From the IMG/VR virus record IMGVR_UViG_2695420699_000009, positions 1 through 8,931 of that record: DNA of 8,931 nt, one strand, 5' to 3'. This stretch comes from a virus (taxonomy: Duplodnaviria; Heunggongvirae; Uroviricota; Caudoviricetes). The translations under genes were made by a program, and so were the position numbers. The notes under the pieces are model-generated. The model was given only the letters and a program-made list of their open reading frames with translations. It was not told the DNA's origin and ran no database searches. Of the stretch, positions 1 to 8,931 are shown in pieces; position 1 is the stretch's first letter; each line of letters starts with the position of its first letter.

Positions 1-127
1 AGAAGCCACTGGAGCACCTCAAAAACACCATCATACACTAAATCAGTAAGTTGGCAGCATCACCGATAGCCTCAAGCACCCGCAGCAATTCTACTTAACT
101 CTCGCTTTACCGCAAACCGTTTTTACC

Positions 128-149
128 CGATATGGGAATTCCCATATCG
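128..149. repeat. Perfect 22-bp palindrome CGATATGGGAATTCCCATATCG (11-bp arms, centred on GAATTC)
   Basis: Read directly: the reverse complement of the first 11 nt equals the last 11 nt. Sits 8 nt downstream of the 158..262 small ORF stop. No U-tract follows on either strand, so it is not a canonical intrinsic terminator. Confidence 0.6.
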
Positions 150-157
150 TAATGAAT

Positions 158-262
158 TCAGTTCCCTAGTCGATCCATCAAAAACACAACCAGGCAGTAA
201 ACGCCCACAACAGCAACAACAGCCAGCGCACCTTCCATTGCCAGTGATATATCATCCGACAT
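158..262 (-). CDS. Candidate small hydrophobic peptide, 34 aa (MSDDISLAMEGALAVVAVVGVYCLVVFLMDRLGN)
   Basis: Below the ORF-track length cutoff; found by hand. ATG at 262 preceded by AAGGAGG with ~4-nt spacing; TGA stop at 158-160; one transmembrane-like hydrophobic stretch. No homology evidence. Confidence 0.3.
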   Translation of the reverse strand: MSDDISLAMEGALAVVAVVGVYCLVVFLMDRLGN

Positions 263-297
263 ATTCCCTCCTTTGGTGTTAATCCCGGCGAACGTTT

Positions 298-381
298 TTA
301 CCCCCACCGACAAATAACATATACTAAAAAAGCGATAGCCATAGCAACGCCTGTAATTGCAAATGCTTCAGGCCAGTTCAT
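298..381 (-). CDS. Candidate small hydrophobic peptide, 27 aa (MNWPEAFAITGVAMAIAFLVYVICRWG)
   Basis: ATG at 381..379 overlaps the TGA stop (380..378) of the upstream 300-aa gene in an ATGA arrangement, suggesting translational coupling; the upstream codons GGAGGTG act as SD; TAA stop at 298-300. Hydrophobic core. Confidence 0.3.
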   Translation of the reverse strand: MNWPEAFAITGVAMAIAFLVYVICRWG

Positions 382-1280
382 TGGCGCACCTCCTGCGGCG
401 GTTCTGGTAGAGGCATCCAGTGTGATGGTATCCACGACGCACCAGGTATTATCCACCCATCATTAGCGTCAGGATGCCCCGGGATGTAAGTCGCCCATTT
501 CATTCGCCAGTCACCTTTCCTGCCAAAATCCCTGGCAACAAGAACGGCTGTTTTGGTATCCGGCATTCGCTCACTACAGCTTATCCAACTATCCGGAGTT
601 ACCGGATAGTTGCCCGATAGTGCATTCTGCTCCAGTGATGCTTTTACAAACCACGCTGCCTGAACTATAACGCCATGAATCCAGCGCAAATCAGCATCGC
701 GATCTTTCTTTTTCATCTTTTCGCCACTTAAGGCCTTGCTTATGTGGCTGCGTACCAGGTCTTCATGTAATTCCTTCGCCTCCTCAATGGTGAAACCACC
801 AGGCAGAAGAGCCGGAGTTACCGGAGAGCTGGTTGACGCTTCCGGGATTTCCCGAAAATTATTGGTTGACGAATTCTTGCTTTCCCGAAAGTTTCCGGAC
901 TGAAGCATGGCGGTGCGGCAGGCGTTCCATATTTCGGCAGCAATATCGCGCTCGCTATCGGTTAATTTGTACGTGGAAACATAGCCAGAGAGCATTTCTA
1001 CGTTTTCCGGAGTTGCTTCTTCCGGCACTACCGGCGCTGGCGGGGCGATGCGTCCAAGCAACTTATTTACCTCTTTCGCCATCGCGTCATATTTATCTAA
1101 ATGGCGATTAGCTTCTAAGCAGACTCGGCGCATCTGATCTGAGTTAACTCGTTTAACTGGATCTGCTTCCAGCGATGCCAGCGCAATCCGTGCCAGTTCC
1201 ATTTGTTCACCACGGGTAAGCCCGTTTTCAAGCGGATTTTTAATGAACAATTCAATACGTTCTTTGGTAATAGTGGTCAT
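378..1280 (-). CDS. Phage protein, 300 aa, with a Trp/Pro-rich C-terminal region resembling the DUF551 family
   Basis: Long ORF; ATG at 1280 preceded by AAGGAG at 6-nt spacing. C-terminus (WISCSERMPD...WIIPGASWIPSHWMPLPEPP) recalled as DUF551-like; not searched. Confidence 0.7.
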   Translation of the reverse strand: MTTITKERIELFIKNPLENGLTRGEQMELARIALASLEADPVKRVNSDQMRRVCLEANRHLDKYDAMAKEVNKLLGRIAPPAPVVPEEATPENVEMLSGYVSTYKLTDSERDIAAEIWNACRTAMLQSGNFRESKNSSTNNFREIPEASTSSPVTPALLPGGFTIEEAKELHEDLVRSHISKALSGEKMKKKDRDADLRWIHGVIVQAAWFVKASLEQNALSGNYPVTPDSWISCSERMPDTKTAVLVARDFGRKGDWRMKWATYIPGHPDANDGWIIPGASWIPSHWMPLPEPPQEVRQ

Positions 1281-1290
1281 GTGTTACTCC

Positions 1291-1554
1291 TTAACCCGCA
1301 GTGCTTTCAACTGATGAGGGGAACAAAATCTTTTCATCAAACCCTGCATTCATATCATGAACAGCAACACACCAATCCATCGACGAACGATTATCAAGAG
1401 CCTCCATGATTTCATCCATGCGGCGTAGGTCATACAGGTAAATGCTTTTATCGCCAATGGTGTAAAAGCCAATTTTTTTCGGTGATGGACAGCGATCAAG
1501 AACTTCCTGTAATTCGTTCAACCATGCCCGTTCTTTTTTTGTCAAAGTTGCCAT
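1291..1554 (-). CDS. Hypothetical phage protein, 87 aa (MATLTKKERAWLNELQEVL...)
   Basis: ATG at 1554 preceded by AAGGAAA; the ORF-track N-terminal extension to 1644 lacks an SD. TAA stop at 1291-1293, 10 nt before the next gene start. Confidence 0.6.
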   Translation of the reverse strand: MATLTKKERAWLNELQEVLDRCPSPKKIGFYTIGDKSIYLYDLRRMDEIMEALDNRSSMDWCVAVHDMNAGFDEKILFPSSVESTAG

Positions 1555-1555
1555 A

Positions 1556-1693
1556 TCAGTTTTCCTTATACGGATTAATTTTATTGTGCAGTGTGTTGAA
1601 TGACGCCCATACCACGTCGTTATACAATTCAATAACTGGCTCAATTATTTTTCCGATTATCCAGACTAGGATTAACGGGGATATCGGTATCAT
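1556..1693 (-). CDS. Possible small membrane protein, 45 aa (MIPISPLILVWIIGKIIEPVIELYNDVVWASFNTLHNKINPYKEN)
   Basis: Hand-found ORF in the 250-bp gap between two genes. Strongly hydrophobic N-terminus; TGA stop lies immediately upstream of the 1554 ATG and its last codons form that gene's SD. No SD of its own (in-frame GTG/TTG alternatives just upstream). Weak call. Confidence 0.2.
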   Translation of the reverse strand: MIPISPLILVWIIGKIIEPVIELYNDVVWASFNTLHNKINPYKEN

Positions 1694-1779
1694 CAACACG
1701 ATAAACAGAATGAGAAACAGAAATTCTGTTGTTCTACTCTTTCGCGGATATTTTTTCTAAATAATGTGACCATTCATTA

Positions 1780-1795
1780 CCGCCCTTTCGGGCGG
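1780..1795 (-). terminator. GC-rich hairpin CCGCCC-TTTC-GGGCGG downstream of the 70-aa gene
   Basis: Perfect 6-bp GC stem with a 4-nt loop, about 10 nt after the TAA stop at 1806-1808. No U-run follows on the minus-strand RNA, so at most a weak terminator or stabilising hairpin. Confidence 0.3.
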
Positions 1796-1805
1796 CCTCC
1801 TGACA

Positions 1806-2018
1806 TTAATCGTTGTAATAACTCATAGCTTCATTTGCAGCATCAACTGGATCAACCTCCCTCCAGCAATAATTTGAATCGGCTCCTTCAGGCGTCCACG
1901 GTTCTAATTCATTTTTTGCCGCATTCTCATCGCCAGTAATTTTAAAAATCTGCTCAGAGAATTTTCTTGCCCACTCGTTATATTTTTCCGCATTAATGGC
2001 TTTCTGTGTATTTAACAT
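1806..2018 (-). CDS. Hypothetical small acidic phage protein, 70 aa
   Basis: ATG at 2018 preceded by GGAGGT at ~7-nt spacing; sits in the co-directional operon. Confidence 0.6.
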   Translation of the reverse strand: MLNTQKAINAEKYNEWARKFSEQIFKITGDENAAKNELEPWTPEGADSNYCWREVDPVDAANEAMSYYND

Positions 2019-2068
2019 AAATATACCTCCAGTTAAGGATTAGATTTTATTTACAGCTCTAAATTTAT

Positions 2069-2425
2069 TTATTCAGTTCTGGATTTTGTCGCCCTGCGTA
2101 TCCGCGCTTTCGCGTTACGCTCAATCTGAATTAACTTTTCTATATTTTTCCGCCTTTCCTGTTCCTCCTGGCGCAATAGCCTTACATCATCTGCCAGTCT
2201 GGTTTCTCTTTTCGCCACAGAGAGCATCCAGTCAAACGGCTCCACAACTGCACCGCAGATTTTACAGCGGACCTGACGCTCTTTTTCGTCAACCCGAACA
2301 GAGGCGTGATGGCAATATGGTCTTTCCGATGGCTCATAAAGAAAATTAACCTGATTACGAGGGTCATCCTCTTTTACCGGAAATAAAACGATATTGCTTA
2401 ACTCATCCTCTGGTTTTATTTCCAT
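2069..2425 (-). CDS. Phage protein with a putative zinc-finger (CHH...CKIC) and a basic coiled C-terminal tail, 118 aa
   Basis: ATG at 2425 preceded by AAAGGAGAGGAGC. An alternative GTG start at 2482 (GTGA overlap with the upstream stop, also with an AGGAG) would add 19 aa. Confidence 0.6.
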   Translation of the reverse strand: MEIKPEDELSNIVLFPVKEDDPRNQVNFLYEPSERPYCHHASVRVDEKERQVRCKICGAVVEPFDWMLSVAKRETRLADDVRLLRQEEQERRKNIEKLIQIERNAKARIRRATKSRTE

Positions 2426-2482
2426 GCTCCTCTCCTTTGATGCGAATGCCAGCGGTAATTGAAGCCTGATAGCTAATTTCAC

Positions 2483-2878
2483 TCACAGTACCGTCTCCTG
2501 AAAATTACCCTGATAGAAAGCCAGTACACGCTGCATAGCTTCACTCTTCCGGCACTCGCCACAGATTATGTTCTGTTGTCTGTCGTAGCGGCGTATTTCT
2601 CCGTCTGGTAACTTTCGAATCAATGTCTGGTCGGTTGCTTTCTCCGCTGCCTTACGCCATACGCGATACACCTGTTCTGATGTAAAAACACCGTATTTAC
2701 CGGGCATGTATAAATCGCCACAAGCCAGTACATCCACAAGGCAACGTCTGACTGAATGCCAGCCTGCTCCCGTCGCTCTCTCCAGTTGTGATATCGTCAT
2801 GCGTTCATTTTTGCGTACCAGCCCGATAATTCGGGCCTTCAGTTCTTCACGCTGTTCGTGTGTAAAAGGTTTCGCCAT
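2483..2878 (-). CDS. Hypothetical phage protein, 131 aa, possible winged-helix N-terminus
   Basis: ATG at 2878 preceded by GGAGG at 6-nt spacing; TGA stop at 2483-2485; tight spacing with neighbours. Confidence 0.7.
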   Translation of the reverse strand: MAKPFTHEQREELKARIIGLVRKNERMTISQLERATGAGWHSVRRCLVDVLACGDLYMPGKYGVFTSEQVYRVWRKAAEKATDQTLIRKLPDGEIRRYDRQQNIICGECRKSEAMQRVLAFYQGNFQETVL

Positions 2879-2893
2879 AAGCGCCTCCGGCTA

Positions 2894-3664
2894 TCACTTT
2901 TCCGATACAACACGGCGGGAAGAATCAGTAATCTGTCGAACAATATCCCGGTGCTTGTTCAGCTCCCGCAGCGCGGCGCAGACTCGCTCCCACTTCTGAA
3001 CATCACTTTTCGCCCTGCGCAGCGCCAGGTTTGCCCTGCGCAGGGACGGAAAAATCAGCTCATCTGCTTGCGTTTCGGTAAACGATGGCAACGGCTGCAC
3101 AATGTCCGCCACAGTTTCTGTTTTAATTTCTTCCTGTGTTGCGGCTTCCCGGACTGGTAACGAAGCACCTGCTGGCTGAGGAAAGGCCTTACCATCACTT
3201 TCCGTTACCAGCGCGGCTTTCGGCTCTGCTGGTAAATTATCGCCCGGCATGCAGTAACGAAATTTACCGTTCTGATTAACGCGTGCCAGCCGCCCCGTTG
3301 CGGTTACCACCGCCAGCGTGGAAGCAACCTTGCGAGTACTGACACCGAACTTACCCGCCAGTTCCTCACACGTTTTAGCCCCATCCTGACCGATAAACTC
3401 AATCATCATGTCTGCGGTAACTTTTTGTTCGACCTCCCCGGTCAGCATATCCTGTGCTTCAGATTTTACTGGCCGCTCTTCGGTTACCCGGGATTCACCT
3501 TCGCCAGCCAGAAACCAGGTGTGACCAGTTTTATCAACGACGCCATTTCTTTTGAGTTCCCACAGCTCGTTGACAGCCTCTTCACGACTGATTCCAAGGC
3601 GAGCTGCCACCACATGTGAAGAGGCTTTTTTCAGTGCTTTCAGTGCGTCAGATACGGTTTCCAT
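2894..3664 (-). CDS. Phage protein, 256 aa, with two tandem winged-helix-like repeats (DUF1627-like by recollection)
   Basis: ATG at 3664 preceded by GGAGG at 8-nt spacing. Two similar segments (VAARLGISREEAVNELWELKRNG and ELAGKFGVSTRKVASTLAVVTATG). Lies directly downstream of the helicase-loader gene, as is usual in lambdoid prophages. Confidence 0.7.
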   Translation of the reverse strand: METVSDALKALKKASSHVVAARLGISREEAVNELWELKRNGVVDKTGHTWFLAGEGESRVTEERPVKSEAQDMLTGEVEQKVTADMMIEFIGQDGAKTCEELAGKFGVSTRKVASTLAVVTATGRLARVNQNGKFRYCMPGDNLPAEPKAALVTESDGKAFPQPAGASLPVREAATQEEIKTETVADIVQPLPSFTETQADELIFPSLRRANLALRRAKSDVQKWERVCAALRELNKHRDIVRQITDSSRRVVSEK

Positions 3665-3685
3665 TAAAATTTCCTCCGGACAAAA

Positions 3686-4432
3686 TTACTTCACAACCCT
3701 CATATTGCTGACATTTGGACGCCAGCTATCCCAGTTAAACGTCACCCATCGACCACCGTTCATGGTCATGCGATCCATAATCCGCTCGCCGAGCAATGTT
3801 TTCATGGCCTCATAGTTCAGGTTTGTCAGCATCCCCACGCTGCGCATCGACGCTGTCCGGCGATCAACAATCTGGTGCAGTACCACCTGCTCGTTTTTCG
3901 TCTCGCGCTGAATGCCAATTTCATCAAGAACCAGCAGATCCACTTCGCACAGTTCCCGCAAAAATTTTTCGCCTGACTGCCCATCGTCATAGCTGGCGTG
4001 CAGGGCACTCATAACATCAGCCACGGTAACCACAATCACTGTCTGACCGTCTTTCAGCAGGCGATTCCCGATAGCTGCCGCTAAGTGGTTCTTCCCGGTA
4101 CCAGGTTTTCCGCTGAACGCAAAATTTGTACACCCGGTCATCAGTTCATCAGCGATGGATTTCGCCTGACTCAACGCGTATCGCTGCCCTTCGTTCTGCA
4201 CCTGGTAATTCGAAAACGAGCATTTGCTGTGCAGAGGCTGGATGCCCGAACGATTCAGGATTTTTTCCACCCGCAACTGGTGATTCTGGCGGTTAATCTC
4301 CTCGCTGCGTTTTCGTCCTTCAGCAAGTTGCCATTCCCGCCACTCCTCCACCGTCCGGTACGGTGGAACCGACGCCTGTGGTGCAAGTCTGCGAATACGT
4401 TCAAGAACCCCGGCTGCCGCAATGTTTTTCAT
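3686..4432 (-). CDS. DnaC/IstB-family AAA+ helicase loader (lambda P functional analogue; Rac YdaV-like), 248 aa
   Basis: Walker A (GKPGTGKNHLAAAIG) and Walker B (DLLVLDEIG) read in the translation. ATG at 4432 lies 6 nt after the upstream gene stop, with a GGGGGTGA SD. Confidence 0.9.
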   Translation of the reverse strand: MKNIAAAGVLERIRRLAPQASVPPYRTVEEWREWQLAEGRKRSEEINRQNHQLRVEKILNRSGIQPLHSKCSFSNYQVQNEGQRYALSQAKSIADELMTGCTNFAFSGKPGTGKNHLAAAIGNRLLKDGQTVIVVTVADVMSALHASYDDGQSGEKFLRELCEVDLLVLDEIGIQRETKNEQVVLHQIVDRRTASMRSVGMLTNLNYEAMKTLLGERIMDRMTMNGGRWVTFNWDSWRPNVSNMRVVK

Positions 4433-4438
4433 GCCACA

Positions 4439-5521
4439 TCACCCCCTGAATCCCGGCGGTATTTCAGTGTCCGGTTCAGAAATGTGATTCACGCAACGCT
4501 GGTTGTTCGTGCCGCTTACCGGGAGCAACCAGGGGTTTTCAAAATTCCGGTCCGGCCCAAAAAACGTCTTCGCTCGCTGAACAAATTCCGTTCCCGCTTT
4601 CCCGGTCGCCGCCAGGTATCTCGCGTAACGCCTCACACCATCCAGCATGGTCTCTGGTGGCACCCCCTCGCGCAATCTGGCCTTCCAGGCACTGAATGCG
4701 GATTTCTTCGGGTTTGCTCCGGCACGCAACGGGAACTCCCGCCAGACCTGTTCGAACACATCCGGATAATCCACTCGTCCCACAGACTGCCCGGTGTTTT
4801 CCGGGACTACCCGATCGGCTTCCCGCTGAATGGCGGAATCGGCTTCGGGCTGCTGCAGTTGGTGTGATTGCTCCGGCCTTGCGGTCATCACCTGCTGCAC
4901 AGCGCCCGAATCGGCTTTCAGCGCATACGCTGAATCGGCTTCCGGTGTCGTGCCTGCTGGCTGACCAGGATTGACGGTCTGAACATCCCCTGCCTGGTTC
5001 GTGGCGTTTTTTACGCCATGGACCATAGTGTTTTGATCTTCTTGATCTGTATCTTTATCTGTATCTTTATCTGTATCTTTATCTGTCGTGACTCGTCGTG
5101 ACATGTGCGTGACATTTCGTGACGCGCCGTGACAATCGCCATTTTGTTCCCGCTTTCTTTCCCTCTCTCGCTGCGCCCTCTTGCGCTCTGCAGGAGATTT
5201 TGCGGTTTGCGAAATATTGCCGTTGTCCTCTTTAAGCACCTGGCGTTTTTCCCATCCAGTGATTAAATCACCATCAAGTACCCGCCCCTGCATCGTCTGC
5301 AAAATTGAATCAATTACCTCTTCTGTCACGTCGAGCGCACTTGCCAAATCTTCTGTCGTGACATCAATGTGACCTCGCGTGACATTTCGTGACGCGCTCA
5401 CCAGGAGGTGGATATACACTGCCATCACTGTTGCAATTGGCTGCCCTGACACCCTGGCAATTGTTCGCCACTTAGGGTCATTTGGCATGTCATGCCATAA
5501 TCTGAGCCAGGCGTTAGCCAT
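4439..5521 (-). CDS. Replication initiator / replisome organiser (lambda O-like; Rac YdaU-like), ~360 aa
   Basis: Sits immediately upstream of the DnaC-like gene. Start taken as the ATG at 5521 (SD GAGGTGA); the ORF track begins at a GTG at 5527. The coding sequence contains the iteron-like repeats and a (TDKD)n linker. Confidence 0.8.
   Translation of the reverse strand: MANAWLRLWHDMPNDPKWRTIARVSGQPIATVMAVYIHLLVSASRNVTRGHIDVTTEDLASALDVTEEVIDSILQTMQGRVLDGDLITGWEKRQVLKEDNGNISQTAKSPAERKRAQRERERKREQNGDCHGASRNVTHMSRRVTTDKDTDKDTDKDTDQEDQNTMVHGVKNATNQAGDVQTVNPGQPAGTTPEADSAYALKADSGAVQQVMTARPEQSHQLQQPEADSAIQREADRVVPENTGQSVGRVDYPDVFEQVWREFPLRAGANPKKSAFSAWKARLREGVPPETMLDGVRRYARYLAATGKAGTEFVQRAKTFFGPDRNFENPWLLPVSGTNNQRCVNHISEPDTEIPPGFRG
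5045..5080. repeat. Tandem 12-bp repeat (ATCTGTATCTTT x3, plus a partial copy) encoding a TDKDTDKDTDKD linker
   Basis: Read directly at 5045-5086; corresponds to ...TTDKDTDKDTDKDTDQ... in the minus-strand translation. Confidence 0.9.
5086..5397. other. Putative phage origin of replication: two clusters of phased GTGAC iteron-like repeats inside the initiator gene
   Basis: Cluster 1 (5086-5133) has five GTGAC copies at ~10-13 bp spacing; cluster 2 (5356-5393) has four. An exact 20-bp repeat CGTGACATTTCGTGACGCGC occurs at 5108-5127 and 5378-5397. Lambda ori lies inside O in the same way. Confidence 0.55.
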
Positions 5522-5592
5522 ACTCACCTCTTCTGATACCGAATCTTTTTACTCACGAGTTGCCGGAAGCGATTCGATATGGCTATTATCAC

Positions 5593-6018
5593 TCAATGCA
5601 CTGCCACAGCATTTCCTGCCGGGCCACCACGGTTCATCTGATTGAAACCGGCGATTGCCACCGCGACAAAATCATCAGCGTCTCTCACCAGTCGCTCCCG
5701 CGTCTCCACCAGCTCCCGAAAATAAGCTGAACTGTGGCTGCGCATTCTGGCCACCAGCAAAGGTGGCATTGCCTTTTCGATCGCTGGTAACAACGCCAGA
5801 ATTTTTTCAACTGCATCAGGGGTGTCTTTCTCTATCCAGCGGAAAATTTTCTGGGTATTGCGAGCCAGGGCTTCCGGATGGCTGTCGTCGTACAGTTCAG
5901 GAAACGTCATACCCAACTCAAAATAAGCCTGGGTTATTCCAGCTGCCGGAACTTTTTCGCCATCAGGACGCGCCCAGGCATTCATCGCCATGCGGATGTG
6001 TTCATGCTTGATTTTCAT
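5593..6018 (-). CDS. CII-like regulator (Rac YdaT-like), 141 aa
   Basis: Immediately follows the Cro-like gene on the same strand; ATG at 6018 preceded by AGGAGC at 7-nt spacing and overlapping the upstream gene's 3' end by 17 nt. Family assignment by position and recollection. Confidence 0.7.
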   Translation of the reverse strand: MKIKHEHIRMAMNAWARPDGEKVPAAGITQAYFELGMTFPELYDDSHPEALARNTQKIFRWIEKDTPDAVEKILALLPAIEKAMPPLLVARMRSHSSAYFRELVETRERLVRDADDFVAVAIAGFNQMNRGGPAGNAVAVH

Positions 6019-6283
6019 GAATCAAGCTCCTAGAAAGTGGTTGTGTTAACGTTTTGGTATCTTCCAGCTCGGGCCAAATATTCATCCAATCAAAAGGCCT
6101 TAGTTGCTGACGTGTAACTTCACCATTACTGGCTCGCTCAATAAGGACACATAACGATGCCCCTAACACTTGACCTTTACTCAATGCCTTTCTTAGATAA
6201 CCGATGCTGGTACCACACTCGCATGCAAACATACGCTGTTCATCTGACGAAAGAGAATTGAGAAATATTCTTAATTCTTCCAT
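6002..6283 (-). CDS. Cro-like HTH regulator (Rac YdaS-like), 93 aa
   Basis: First gene of the minus-strand operon, divergent from the repressor; ATG at 6283 preceded by AAGGAG at 5-nt spacing; HTH-like segment around TSIGYLRKALSKGQ. Confidence 0.75.
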   Translation of the reverse strand: MEELRIFLNSLSSDEQRMFACECGTSIGYLRKALSKGQVLGASLCVLIERASNGEVTRQQLRPFDWMNIWPELEDTKTLTQPLSRSLIHENQA

Positions 6284-6308
6284 AGCTACTCCTTAGTAAA
6301 CACAGCAA

Positions 6309-6390
6309 AGAATACCCATAGGTAAACAAAAGTCAATACCCATAGGTTGTTTACCTTGCGGTAATCGCATCTATTATTTACCTATGGATA
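6309..6390. promoter_or_regulatory. OR-like divergent promoter region with three copies of a 12-bp palindromic operator (consensus TACCyATrGGTA)
   Basis: Operators at 6313-6324 (TACCCATAGGTA), 6337-6348 (TACCCATAGGTT) and 6379-6390 (TACCTATGGATA, overlapping the repressor ATG). Candidate minus-strand promoter: -35 TTGACT (6336..6331), -10 TATTCT (6314..6309). Candidate plus-strand promoter: -10 TATTAT (6372-6377), placing the start at or near the ATG. Confidence 0.6.
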
Positions 6391-6803
6391 AATATGAATT
6401 TAGACGACAGCAACTCATCAAAATTCGTGATGAGAAATGCGATGGTAAAGCGGTTAACGTGGCCAGAAAGATCGGGCGCGAGCCTTCTTATGTATCAAGA
6501 ATGTTGTACCCAGAGGGGAAAAAGGGAAAAAAACGGATCGCTGATGATATGGTGGAGATTATCGAAGAGTCCTTTGGGTTACCCCGGGGATGGATGGATG
6601 GTATCGTTTCATCATCAACGAACACAGCCTCCAGTTATGAAACAAGGGTTCTAACGCCACGACAACGTATTTTTTTAGATCTCTTAGACGAACTGCCAGA
6701 AAGTGAAGCGGATAAATTATTAAAAACTCTTGAAGAGAAAAAACAGTATTACAATATGATCTACGAAGAAATCCGTAAAAAGAAAGCACAAAACGCATCA
6801 TAG
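6384..6803 (+). CDS. CI-type prophage repressor, 139 aa, XRE-like HTH with a DicA/RacR-like C-terminal region
   Basis: Divergent from the Cro-like gene. HTH-like segment AVNVARKIGREPSYVSRML. The C-terminal part (LTPRQRIFLDLLDELPESEADKLL...) resembles the DicA C-terminus as I recall it. No SD upstream, consistent with a leaderless transcript. Confidence 0.8.
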   Translation: MDKYEFRRQQLIKIRDEKCDGKAVNVARKIGREPSYVSRMLYPEGKKGKKRIADDMVEIIEESFGLPRGWMDGIVSSSTNTASSYETRVLTPRQRIFLDLLDELPESEADKLLKTLEEKKQYYNMIYEEIRKKKAQNAS

Positions 6804-6845
6804 CTCACCAAACAACTAGTCACCAGTTAAGACACCGCAAAAAGT

Positions 6846-6886
6846 TACCCATGGGTATTTACTTTTTAAATACCTATGGGTATCCT
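6846..6886. promoter_or_regulatory. OL-like operator pair and candidate rightward early promoter
   Basis: Same motif as in OR: TACCCATGGGTA (6846-6857, perfect palindrome) and TACCTATGGGTA (6871-6882), 25 bp centre to centre. Candidate -35 TTTACT (6858-6863) and -10 TATCCT (6881-6886) with a 17-bp spacer, firing on the plus strand. Confidence 0.5.
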
Positions 6887-7207
6887 TCTTTTCATGCCAA
6901 CCCACCCCGCCCCACAGAATGCAGGGCAATACTTTGAGTTACCAGGCAGTGGTCAGGGGTTAAGTAGCCAGCCCGAGGCGTAAGAACATGACGGCAGGGT
7001 TCAACTTTAATAACTATGCAGCAGGTTTTTGTTCCGCTACCCCGGCGTTAAGGGGAAACAGAGGATTTCTCAGTGGGCGAAGTCAAACATCAGAATGGAA
7101 GGCATCCAGGGATCAGCAAAGAAACAGCGATGGCGCTTTATATTGATATCAGCGCCATTGCCGGACAGGTAAGAATTATCAGAGCGGTAACTAAGCGGTA
7201 TGCGCCT

Positions 7208-7408
7208 TTACTTCAGAAAGTCTCTGGTGAGTGCACCGAAGATATTGTCAACGATTTCGTCATCAAACTGCGAGGACTCATCTTCAGTTACAAGGTGACC
7301 ACAATTTTTGCAGATGGCTCCCGCGAAACTGTCAGAGCCATGCGGTTTAAAGGATGTGTCAAAGACTTCGCCGCCACATTCTGGGCAAGAAAACTTGATT
7401 GTATTCAT
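7208..7408 (-). CDS. Small Cys4 zinc-ribbon protein with an acidic C-terminal tail, 66 aa
   Basis: Two CxxCG knuckles (CPECGG and CKNCGH) 20 residues apart. ATG at 7408 preceded by GAGAGGAAA at ~9-nt spacing; the ORF-track start at 7414 is a TTG. Oriented opposite to the surrounding plus-strand early operon. A plus-strand ORF (7073-7429) fully overlaps it; the zinc-ribbon motif decided the call. Confidence 0.55.
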   Translation of the reverse strand: MNTIKFSCPECGGEVFDTSFKPHGSDSFAGAICKNCGHLVTEDESSQFDDEIVDNIFGALTRDFLK

Positions 7409-7500
7409 AACCAATTTCCTCTCGAGTAACAGCCGCCTCAGAGGATACCACCTCGCCTGACGTGGTTAAAAGCAGGCAACGCTAACCACAAGGAGCCGAC

Positions 7501-7719
7501 ATGCAGAAACGAGAACCCGTCATCATCGCGCCAGACTATACCGATGATGAACTTTATGAGTGGATGCACCAGAAAATTAAGGCAGCGCAGGACCTGAAAT
7601 GGGCCAATGAAGCCAGGGCTAAGCAAGCTGAAAATCTGTCCGCTCTGGAGCAGGATATCACCAATCTGGAAAAAGCAGCGGCATTAAGCATTGCCAGAAT
7701 GATTACATACCCGCGTTAA
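7501..7719 (+). CDS. Hypothetical early-operon protein, 72 aa (same position and size as Qin YdfC, but not verified)
   Basis: ATG at 7501 preceded by AAGGAGCC at 5-6 nt spacing; TAA stop at 7717-7719; same strand as the dicF-dicB module. Confidence 0.6.
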   Translation: MQKREPVIIAPDYTDDELYEWMHQKIKAAQDLKWANEARAKQAENLSALEQDITNLEKAAALSIARMITYPR

Positions 7720-8059
7720 TAGCTAACCAACGAAGCTAAGGTTGGTAATTAAGGAGTTCTCCACGGGTGAGGTGGAGTGCGTGCGCCGGACACGGGTGAG
7801 CATCCGGCACTGACAGTTTACTGAAAGGATATTTCCCTGAAAAGTCAGGGCATAACGCGAAAGCGCACGGCGAGGTAGCTGGTTCATAGATAGCCTGTCG
7901 TTAAATTTTCGTCGACCGTGCGCTTCCGGTTGTGGCACTCCGCGAAATGGCGCGGCGGTAAGTATGGCGGGGTTATTCCTTCCCCGTTGAGGACACCGGG
8001 TTGTCAGGTTGACCATACGCTTAAGTGACAACCCCGCTGCAACGCCCTCTGTTATCAAT

Positions 8060-8117
8060 TTTCTGGTGACGTTTGGCGGTATCAGTTTTACTCCGTGGCT
8101 GCTCTGCCGCCCTTTTT
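8060..8117 (+). ncRNA. dicF: DicF-like small RNA (ftsZ-targeting sRNA of Qin-type prophages)
   Basis: TTTCTGGTGACGTTTGGCGGTATCAGTTTTACTCCGTGGCTGCTCTGCCGCCCTTTTT matches my recollection of E. coli DicF almost base for base. It ends in a GC-rich stem plus T-run and lies ~170 nt upstream of the dicB-like gene, as in the Qin dicB operon. Ends are approximate, since DicF is made by processing. Confidence 0.7.
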
Positions 8118-8286
8118 AAAGTGAATTTTGTGATGCGGTGAATGCGGCTAAGCGCACGCGGAACAGTTAAAACCAAAAACAGTGTTATGGGTGGATTCTC
8201 TGTATCCGGCGTTAATTGTTAACTGGTTAACGTCACCTGGAGGCACCAGGCACTGCATCACAAAATTCATTGTTGAGGACGCGATA

Positions 8287-8475
8287 ATGGAAAAGTTATC
8301 ACGTAATGCCAGCACGTCTGAACTTCGTTTCGAAATTGGCGTTATCACTGGAGACAAAACATTTATTGAAGACGCCATTAAGCAGAGAAAACTCGAGCAG
8401 GACCTGTTAAATGAAGTATGCATTCCTTCAATGCTGGCTCGTCTGGACCTGCTGCAAAAAGGATATAAACAATGA
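8287..8475 (+). CDS. dicB: DicB-like cell-division inhibitor, 62 aa
   Basis: Same length as E. coli DicB and shares recalled motifs (FEIGV, EDAI, KRK, LLN, SMLARL, C-terminal KG..Q). ATG at 8287 preceded by GAGGA at ~8-nt spacing; the ORF-track extension to 8182 has no support. Confidence 0.8.
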   Translation: MEKLSRNASTSELRFEIGVITGDKTFIEDAIKQRKLEQDLLNEVCIPSMLARLDLLQKGYKQ

Positions 8476-8663
8476 ATACAACATTTGCACTCGTTCTGAC
8501 AGTTTATCTTGTTTCCGGCGAATCTCTTGAGCTGGTGACTGGCTTATACGGTTCAATGAAAGAATGCATGGCTGCAGCAGCAGAACAAAAAATTCCCGGT
8601 AACTGTTATCCGGTAGATAAAACTACCCACACTAATAATAACGAAATACCGGCAGGACTTTAA
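8472..8663 (+). CDS. Small protein with a hydrophobic N-terminus, 63 aa, translationally coupled to dicB (YdfD-like by position and size)
   Basis: ATG at 8472-8474 overlaps the dicB-like TGA stop in an ATGA arrangement. N-terminal hydrophobic segment MNTTFALVLTVYLVSG. Matches the position and length of Qin YdfD; sequence identity not verified. Confidence 0.55.
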   Translation: MNTTFALVLTVYLVSGESLELVTGLYGSMKECMAAAAEQKIPGNCYPVDKTTHTNNNEIPAGL

Positions 8664-8756
8664 AACAGCACCGTAATTAATATCCGGTTTCATTTTTATA
8701 TGCCAGCAATGGCAGGGATTTGTTCACCCTTAAATCTGTAATGAGGTTAAAACAAA

Positions 8757-8931
8757 ATGAGTAAAGTCTTTATTTGCGCCGCCATTCCGGACGAACAGGC
8801 AATAAAAGAAGAGGGCGCAGTTGCTGTAGCCACTGCCATTGAAGCTGGCGACGAACGCCGTGCTCGAGCAAAATTTCACTGGCAATTCCTGGAACATTAT
8901 CCGGCTGCTCAGGACTGCGCTTATAAATTTA
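8757..8931 (+). CDS. Hypothetical protein, 5' part only (runs off the window; YdfE-like by position)
   Basis: ATG at 8757 with GAGG ~10 nt upstream; open to the end of the window (MSKVFICAAIPDEQAIKEEGAVAVATAIEAGDERRARAKFHWQFLEHYPAAQDCAYKF...). Confidence 0.55.
   Translation, partial: MSKVFICAAIPDEQAIKEEGAVAVATAIEAGDERRARAKFHWQFLEHYPAAQDCAYKF

Follow-up and report, generated by a model that had tools for sequence, protein, structure and literature searches.

Which relation to the prophage Qin of Escherichia coli K-12 should be assigned to a locus that combines a Qin-like division-control module with a repressor that is not DicA: divergence of the whole locus, or exchange of some of its parts? 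We have addressed this question in an 8,931-nucleotide (nt) stretch of DNA, positions 1 to 8,931 of the IMG/VR virus record IMGVR_UViG_2695420699_000009, referred to below as the window, in which a sequence-only reading had placed a DicF-like small RNA (sRNA), a DicB-like division inhibitor and a YdfD-like protein. The Rfam, Pfam, NCBIfam and K-12 alignments bear out the three products at those positions and in that order. Our results indicate that the segment is very probably a copy of the dicBF early-left operon part of a lambdoid (Qin-like) E. coli prophage, with the arrangement ydfC, leader, dicF, spacer, dicB, ydfD and exonuclease gene, which lies beside an immunity region with a specificity unlike that of DicA/DicC. 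The dicF-dicB-ydfD cassette is already known, widely annotated in E. coli prophages and, in this sense, ordinary. What the present analysis adds, namely a sharp mosaic boundary, a set of allele classes, a conserved processing stem and an operator set, are refinements and no discoveries.

The dicF-dicB-ydfD module

The elements of the module are the following:

7720-8059, plus strand: structured non-coding leader of 340 nt between ydfC and dicF (97% identity to K-12; fold z-score -3.3)
8060-8112, plus strand: DicF sRNA (Rfam RF00039, K-12 alignment, fold and terminator-like site)
8121-8271, plus strand: long-range stem of about 20 bp enclosing the dicF-dicB spacer (arms 8122-8140 and 8251-8269)
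8287-8475, plus strand: dicB, 62 amino acids (aa) plus stop, of the window or 'W' allele class (PF05358, NF049927 and K-12 alignment)
8472-8663, plus strand: ydfD-like gene, 63 aa plus stop, DUF1482 (PF07358, phrog_1092 and K-12 alignment)

DicF, the sole Rfam family detected in the window by the Rfam scan, is recognised by model RF00039 at 8061-8112 on the plus strand over its full length (1-52 of 52), with a score of 75 bits (E 1.4e-15) that exceeds the gathering score of 48. The alignment of 8060-8112 to K-12 dicF (b1574) is significant, with 52 of 53 bases identical. The single mismatch, G8098 in place of A39 of K-12, makes a U-G pair out of a U-A in the inner stem of the terminator, and represents the rarer form of the sRNA (3 of the 44 copies surveyed). 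In the minimum free energy fold, an unpaired 5΄ region (8060-8074) precedes a terminator hairpin (8075-8111) followed by UUUUU, and the end point of 8117 given by the sequence-only reading takes in the U-tail. A terminator-like site was also called at DicF by the terminator scan, and the pairs of the hairpin are conserved in 28 sequences. DicF is located in the 3΄ untranslated region of ydfC, upstream of dicB, and is flanked by RNase III/E processing structures. In K-12, the 3΄ half of DicF pairs with the ribosome-binding site of ftsZ, an interaction validated by compensatory mutations, and expression of the sRNA leads to Hfq-dependent repression of ftsZ translation and to filamentation (PMC5069750). 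By analogy with that work, the DicF of the window would block ftsZ translation.

The cis elements known from K-12 are intact in the window. In the leader, an inverted repeat (7858-7870 / 7916-7928) spans position ~7923, and thus covers the position that matches the 5΄ end generated by RNase III in the 190-nt DicF precursor; this 190-nt species and its dependence on RNase III have been described in K-12 (PMC10448788). Downstream of dicF, the spacer stem is a 19-nt inverted repeat with 95% complementarity and a fold z-score of -5.8. Across 28 distinct homologues all of its 20 pairs are kept, and the four variable positions show C-G/U-G or G-C/G-U changes only. The 5΄ arm contains position 8131 (8060+71), which is the expected 3΄ end of the 72-nt DicF set free by RNase III cleavage of read-through RNA (PMC9438474). 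The Shine-Dalgarno sequence of dicB (GAGGA, 8275-8279) lies directly downstream of the stem, and the promoter scan found no separate plus-strand promoter before dicB (8113-8286), consistent with PMC10448788. As a separate observation, the apical part of the spacer hairpin (window ~8170-8200; columns 118-175 of alignment A5) is exchanged in different prophages for unrelated inserts (at least three, 9-23 nt long), with invariant arms.

The 62-aa protein aligns significantly with DicB, as had been claimed: it matches Pfam PF05358 with 127.1 bits (cut-off 27) and NCBIfam NF049927 with 121.4 bits (cut-off 100), in both cases over residues 1-62 of 62, and its gap-free alignment to K-12 DicB gives 55% identity. 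Public records have the exact protein on 127 contigs, under the name 'cell division inhibition protein DicB'. K-12 DicB binds MinC and directs it to ZipA, which dissolves Z rings, and via MinC it blocks phage entry that depends on ManYZ (PMC6832061). Transferring these properties from K-12, the protein encoded in the window may bind MinC's C-terminal domain and may block division in a MinC/ZipA-dependent manner. We found no solved structure of DicB or YdfD.

The product of the next gene matches Pfam DUF1482 (PF07358; 69.2 bits, gathering score 25) and phrog_1092 (117 bits, residues 1-63 of 63), and its alignment to K-12 YdfD, which is annotated as 'lysis protein', gives 63% identity. As in K-12 YdfD, the protein begins with MN and ends with IPAGL, and residues C32 and C45 are kept; single-residue truncations of K-12 YdfD abolish lysis (PMC8835842). 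The overlap of the ydfD start with the dicB stop, an ATGA at 8472-8475, is present as described, and in 79 of 92 dicB copies, drawn from species-representative genomes and viral contigs, a downstream ORF (open reading frame) with an overlap of the ATGA type follows dicB; judged from the sequence, ydfD appears to be translationally coupled to dicB through this overlap. The sequence-only reading had called the product a coupled small membrane protein, and it is the second part of that description that is not established. The 19-residue Kyte-Doolittle mean peaks at 1.51, against the usual 1.6 and a value of 2.0 for K-12 YdfD; the uninterrupted hydrophobic run comprises ~11 residues and is followed by Glu17 and Glu20; and a single-sequence AlphaFold model of low confidence (predicted local distance difference test, pLDDT, 65.5) shows residues 5-11 as a strand. 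The original report of lysis by YdfD is said to be that of Masuda et al. (2016). YdfD of K-12 lyses dividing cells, binds the cytoplasmic enzyme IspG and is offset by DicB (PMC8835842), and by transfer from K-12 the protein of the window may likewise lyse dividing cells. We also noted a 16-nt inverted repeat with 88% complementarity between the 3΄ part of dicB (8418-8433, ATGCATTCCTTCAATG) and the middle of ydfD (8554-8569, CAATGAAAGAATGCAT).

Mosaic structure and allele classes

Comparison with K-12 Qin showed that the identity falls at the start codon of dicB and rises again past the stop codon of ydfD. The nucleotide identities to Qin are the following:

ydfC: 97%
340-nt leader: 97%
dicF: 98%
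174-nt dicF-dicB spacer: 99%
dicB: 73%
ydfD: 75%
region past the ydfD stop: 91-93%

The locus had been described as a divergent homologue of the Qin locus. This holds for the coding sequences of dicB and ydfD, but not for ydfC, the leader, dicF and the spacer, which are 97-99% identical to Qin, and as far as sequence can tell the relation to Qin is one of module exchange rather than of overall divergence. The number of synonymous substitutions per site (dS) with respect to K-12 is 0.55-0.70 in dicB and ydfD and 0.07 in ydfC. The ratio of nonsynonymous to synonymous substitutions (dN/dS) is 0.53 for dicB and 0.32 for ydfD, values that point to purifying selection, so that both look like working genes. 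Taken together, the contrast in dS and the dN/dS values suggest that the dicB-ydfD pair is an old functional allele set between Qin-like blocks by recombination.

A survey of the pair in E. coli gave a bimodal distribution. When the best match per record was counted in the 4087 complete-genome records with a match, the identity was at least 99% in 502 of them, O157:H7 included, and 60-80% (the K-12 type) in 3546, with few records between the two. The 92 dicB copies fall into 64 of the K-12 type, 23 of the W type, three recombinants and two of a third type, and the W-type dicB is followed by a W-type ydfD in 23 of 23 cases. A five-way alignment showed that the same conserved blocks flank the three DicB-YdfD allele classes. 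In phage Evi (positions 2053-2274 of locus L004, aligned to window 8287-8663) the place of dicB-ydfD, flanked as in the window by the dicF-spacer block and the exonuclease block, is taken by a gene for a 73-aa FtsZ inhibitor of the KilR type (NF008465, 140 bits vs 92). From these alignments, the dicB-ydfD slot seems to accept alternative division inhibitors.

The immunity region

Upstream of the module the window carries the genes and sites of an immunity region:

6002-6283, minus strand: cro-like regulator at the position of DicC (phrog_35 'transcriptional repressor', 83 bits; weak match to the YdaS Pfam family)
6313-6390, no strand: three copies of the 12-bp palindrome TACCCATAGGTA at the position of the right operator (OR), at 6313-6324, 6337-6348 and 6379-6390, between the divergent cro-like and repressor genes
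6384-6803, plus strand: CI-type prophage repressor, 139 aa (phrog_5736, CI of phage Tritos and public name)
6846-6886, plus strand: two further TACCCATAGGTA operator copies at the position of the left operator (OL), at 6846-6857 and 6871-6882, just downstream of the repressor gene

The repressor matches phrog_5736 ('transcriptional regulator') with 234 bits, shares 39% identity with the protein annotated as CI repressor in phage Tritos, and its exact sequence is public as 'Phage repressor protein CI'. Its likeness to DicA in BLASTP is limited to the C-terminal 46 aa (33% identity), and it remains below the cut-off of the NCBIfam DicA model PRK09706 (24.5 bits vs 101), which it matches at profile positions 81-131 only. 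The cro-like gene and the repressor gene are divergent, and past the former lie ydaT/cII-like, replisome-organizer and DnaC-like genes, in the same order as in NZ_CP024127. A pattern search found five sites of the palindrome in the window, where 0.27 are expected, and none of 200 shuffles reached five; the repeat families D1 and D2 also cover the copies in 6313-6390. The window has these palindromes in place of operators of the DicA type, the operator region of K-12 being different, with sites of the TGTTAG... type. The claim that the module lies on a different immunity type is supported by these three features, the restricted likeness to DicA, the five operators and their difference from the K-12 operator sequence. 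A terminator-like hairpin called by the scan at 6846-6882 was reread as two adjacent operators, since three more copies of the 12-mer lie in the divergent promoter region.

The downstream operators overlap a promoter-like site, with a -35 box TTTACT (6858-6863), a 17-nt spacer and a -10 box TATCCT (6881-6886). In K-12 an operator likewise lies between the hexamers of dicBp (PMC10448788). The candidate promoter 6858-6886 would open the leftward early operon to which the module belongs, and from the placement of the operators the repressor encoded at 6384-6803 may control it. The statement that the module sits under a repressor other than DicA is therefore correct as regards the nature of the repressor, and presumptive as regards the control, which we infer from operator positions. 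Homology to sequenced phages starts directly past the downstream operator pair (~6895-6903), and homology to K-12 resumes at ~7031, in the leader of K-12 ydfA.

A model for the control and action of the module

We propose a model whose steps are drawn from K-12 experiments, with the exception of the terminator, the spacer stem and the ATGA overlap, which are seen in the window. The processing of dicBF in K-12, and its control by DicA and the antirepressor Rem, have been described (PMC10448788). In the prophage, the CI-type repressor bound to the palindromic operators would keep the leftward promoter off and the module silent, and upon derepression a polycistronic RNA would be made through ydfC. 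Most transcripts would end at the DicF terminator (hairpin 8075-8111 plus U-tail), and trimming of the 5΄ side by RNases III and E would yield DicF species of 190 and 53 nt. Read-through RNA would be cut by RNase III in the stem 8122-8140 / 8251-8269, which would give the 72-nt DicF and separate it from the dicB-ydfD message. With Hfq, DicF would pair by its 3΄ half with the ribosome-binding site of ftsZ and block the synthesis of FtsZ, and its 5΄ end would act on other mRNAs such as that of xylR. DicB would act through MinC to dissolve Z rings and to block phages that enter via ManYZ. Finally, YdfD, made by coupling to dicB, would lyse dividing cells, reportedly by inhibition of IspG, and the division arrest imposed by DicB would counteract this lysis.

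Weighing of the proposed reading and its alternatives

Several observations weigh against the proposed reading. The promoter-like site agrees with the consensus in 8 of 12 positions, which is under the threshold of the promoter scan, and a minus-strand gene (7208-7414) lies between this candidate promoter and ydfC. The predicted duplex of DicF with the K-12 ftsZ leader (-60 to +30) has an energy of -38.5 kcal/mol in RNAduplex for both the window and the K-12 sRNA, with the variant base G8098 within an unpaired loop, and 56 of 500 shuffled DicF sequences match this energy, which alone is not significant. We therefore discarded the duplex energy as independent evidence of targeting, and the claim on ftsZ rests on the near-identity to the validated K-12 RNA. 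DicF is not an obligatory partner of DicB either: in 48 of the 92 copies, found among loci L034-L092 (IMG/VR contigs) and L012, dicB has no dicF within 400 nt upstream, and an Rfam scan of 20 of these 48 loci found no dicF, so the dicB-ydfD pair also travels without the sRNA. DicB keeps the length and register of its K-12 counterpart, yet only 6 of its 13 N-terminal residues match, and residue 5 is Ser where K-12 has Leu. Lastly, the literature searched contains no experimental work on this dicB-ydfD allele. At one of the loci with dicB and no dicF (L074), we observed a C4 antisense RNA and isrK upstream instead.

The N-terminus of DicB deserves attention, since in K-12 its first 13 residues are reportedly essential, and the change L5A abolishes toxicity (PMC4967827). 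A reading that we consider unlikely is that the segment past dicF is a recombination slot whose near-invariant non-coding flanks would allow prophages to swap host-division effectors (three or more DicB-YdfD classes, recombinants of these or a KilR-type FtsZ inhibitor); phage competition would be the driver of the diversity, and the W-type DicB, with its altered N-terminus (Ser5, and 7 of 13 residues different from K-12), would have a partner or phage-exclusion specificity unlike that of K-12.

A related explanation, to which we give a slim chance, keeps the same parts and proposes a functional divergence of the W-type DicB and perhaps of YdfD, with weak or no binding to MinC, another partner or other phages excluded, so that the exchange of cassettes would reflect selection for new specificities. 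This would account for a protein with 55% identity to K-12 whose critical N-terminus is the most diverged part, with Ser at the position where L5A is inactivating, for the fairly relaxed dN/dS of dicB (0.53), for discrete allele classes with few intermediates, for the polymorphism of residue 6 (C/R/Y) within the W class, and for the unrelated KilR-type FtsZ inhibitor that phage Evi has in the same slot. However, the match to the curated DicB models is gap-free, full-length and above their cut-offs; 28 of 62 columns, including FxIGV, EDAI and RK, are invariant over the three allele classes; and the dN/dS of dicB is below 1, with the allele intact in hundreds of genomes. At codon 6 (8302-8304), the W class has mostly Cys, the window having Arg and one copy Tyr, and the remainder of the protein is nearly invariant within the class.

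That a decaying prophage carries the module as inert cargo, with the genes of the module intact by inertia and never meaningfully expressed, is in our view extremely improbable: K-12 Qin itself is cryptic with a tightly repressed dicBF operon (PMC10448788), the promoter-like site of the window is weak and ydfD is truncated in some homologous copies, but the pattern of synonymous and nonsynonymous changes points to purifying selection, the processing structures have no broken pair in 28 variants, the nearest full prophage (in NZ_CP024127) retains replication genes, exonuclease, xis and int, and sequenced phages such as Tritos share the arrangement. We favour the interpretation of the segment as a Qin-like dicBF operon part with an exchanged dicB-ydfD pair.

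Comparison with known systems

DicF, DicB and YdfD count among the textbook products of cryptic prophages, and in enterohaemorrhagic E. coli (EHEC) multiple copies of dicF are known to affect virulence regulation; the EHEC copies are reportedly dealt with by Melson and Kendall (2019). Of 5426 complete E. coli genomes, 4759 contain a match to the 1.2-kb segment 7720-8931, and the exact DUF1482 protein, the repressor and YdfC are each public on about 1000 or more contigs. The dicBF locus occurs in several prophage contexts (PMC5069750), with multiple copies in O157:H7 (PMC7873438). The records that come nearest to the full 8.9-kb window cover 78-82% of it at 94-96% identity, and none covers all of it at high identity.

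K-12 Qin (ydfABC-dicF-dicB-ydfD-ydfE; b1571-b1577) shares with the window the order ydfC, leader, dicF, spacer, dicB, ATGA-coupled ydfD and exonuclease gene, as well as the terminator and both inverted repeats associated with RNase III. It differs in dicB and ydfD (73% and 75% in DNA, 55% and 63% in protein), in the genes ydfA and ydfB, which in the window are replaced by a segment with a minus-strand Zn-ribbon gene, and in the repressor and operators, which in the window belong to another immunity type. Prophages of EHEC and other E. coli strains (O157:H7, O145:H28 and 14EC001) carry the same dicB-ydfD allele with 99.5-99.7% DNA identity, and RefSeq annotates such prophage copies as DicB plus DUF1482. 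In NZ_CP024127 the whole 1.2-kb segment is 98.9% identical. The order of the window matches both K-12 Qin and the full prophage of this record, in which exonuclease, xis and int follow and adjoin rspB, the attachment region of Qin.

The sequenced temperate phage Tritos (OV696610) has a 139-aa CI followed by ydfC, an annotated DicF, dicB, ydfD, exonuclease VIII, xis and int. Unlike the window, it has the K-12-type dicB-ydfD allele, it keeps ydfA- and ydfB-like genes, and its CI is 39% identical to the repressor described here. KilR of the Rac prophage and the lambdoid early-left FtsZ inhibitors sit at the corresponding operon position, upstream of exonuclease/recombination genes, with a division block as the outcome, but KilR has no sequence relation to DicB, and DicB acts via MinC and ZipA and not directly on FtsZ (PMC6832061).

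What weight should be given to this allele? As a discovery it has little, the exact allele being already annotated in hundreds of E. coli genomes, EHEC included. To our knowledge, functional work on DicB and YdfD has used the K-12 alleles throughout. The window represents a second allele class (55% and 63% protein identity to K-12) that gave the top hit, with an identity of at least 99%, in 502 of the 4087 records with a match and that differs from K-12 at the toxicity-critical position 5, and extrapolation of the K-12 results on division inhibition and phage exclusion to pathogenic strains calls for care over this allele.

Neighbouring genes and other observations

Two further genes flank the module:

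7501-7719, plus strand: ydfC (97% nt identity to K-12 ydfC; annotated ydfC in NZ_CP024127)
8757-8931, plus strand: 5΄ end of an exonuclease VIII / RecE-like gene at the position of ydfE (phrog_2082 'exonuclease', 133 bits)

The first is the gene whose 3΄ untranslated region yields DicF, and its exact protein is public as 'protein YdfC'. The second, a further member of the same operon, extends past the end of the window; in NZ_CP024127 the corresponding gene is annotated 'exonuclease' and is followed by xis and int.

Between the immunity region and ydfC, two ORFs overlap on opposite strands, both with family support. Phage records call the plus-strand ORF (7073-7429, 118 aa), whose family match is phrog_21318. 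On the minus strand, the ORF at 7208-7414 encodes a 68-aa Zn-ribbon protein with a CxxC...CxxC pattern, matches the NCBIfam ECs_2282 family (57 bits vs 37) and is called by the Prokaryotic Genome Annotation Pipeline (PGAP). In the overlap, 7 of the 8 sites that vary among four homologues are at the third codon position of the minus strand, which, on eight sites only, favours the minus-strand Zn-ribbon gene over the plus-strand ORF. This gene, if real, would sit antisense inside the leftward early operon.

Minus-strand ORFs in the leader (7723-8058) were rejected as coding candidates: their 19 variable sites are split 5/9/5 over the codon positions, with no coding signal, and the minus-strand 'hypothetical protein' that PGAP calls there in RefSeq (7723-7887, equivalent to L001 9004-9168) is probably spurious. 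Finally, one locus of the survey (L008), recorded as 'MAG: Veillonella parvula' on a 22.9-kb scaffold, carries a K-12-type dicB with dicF upstream, and is most likely an Escherichia prophage contig mis-binned in a metagenome-assembled genome (MAG).

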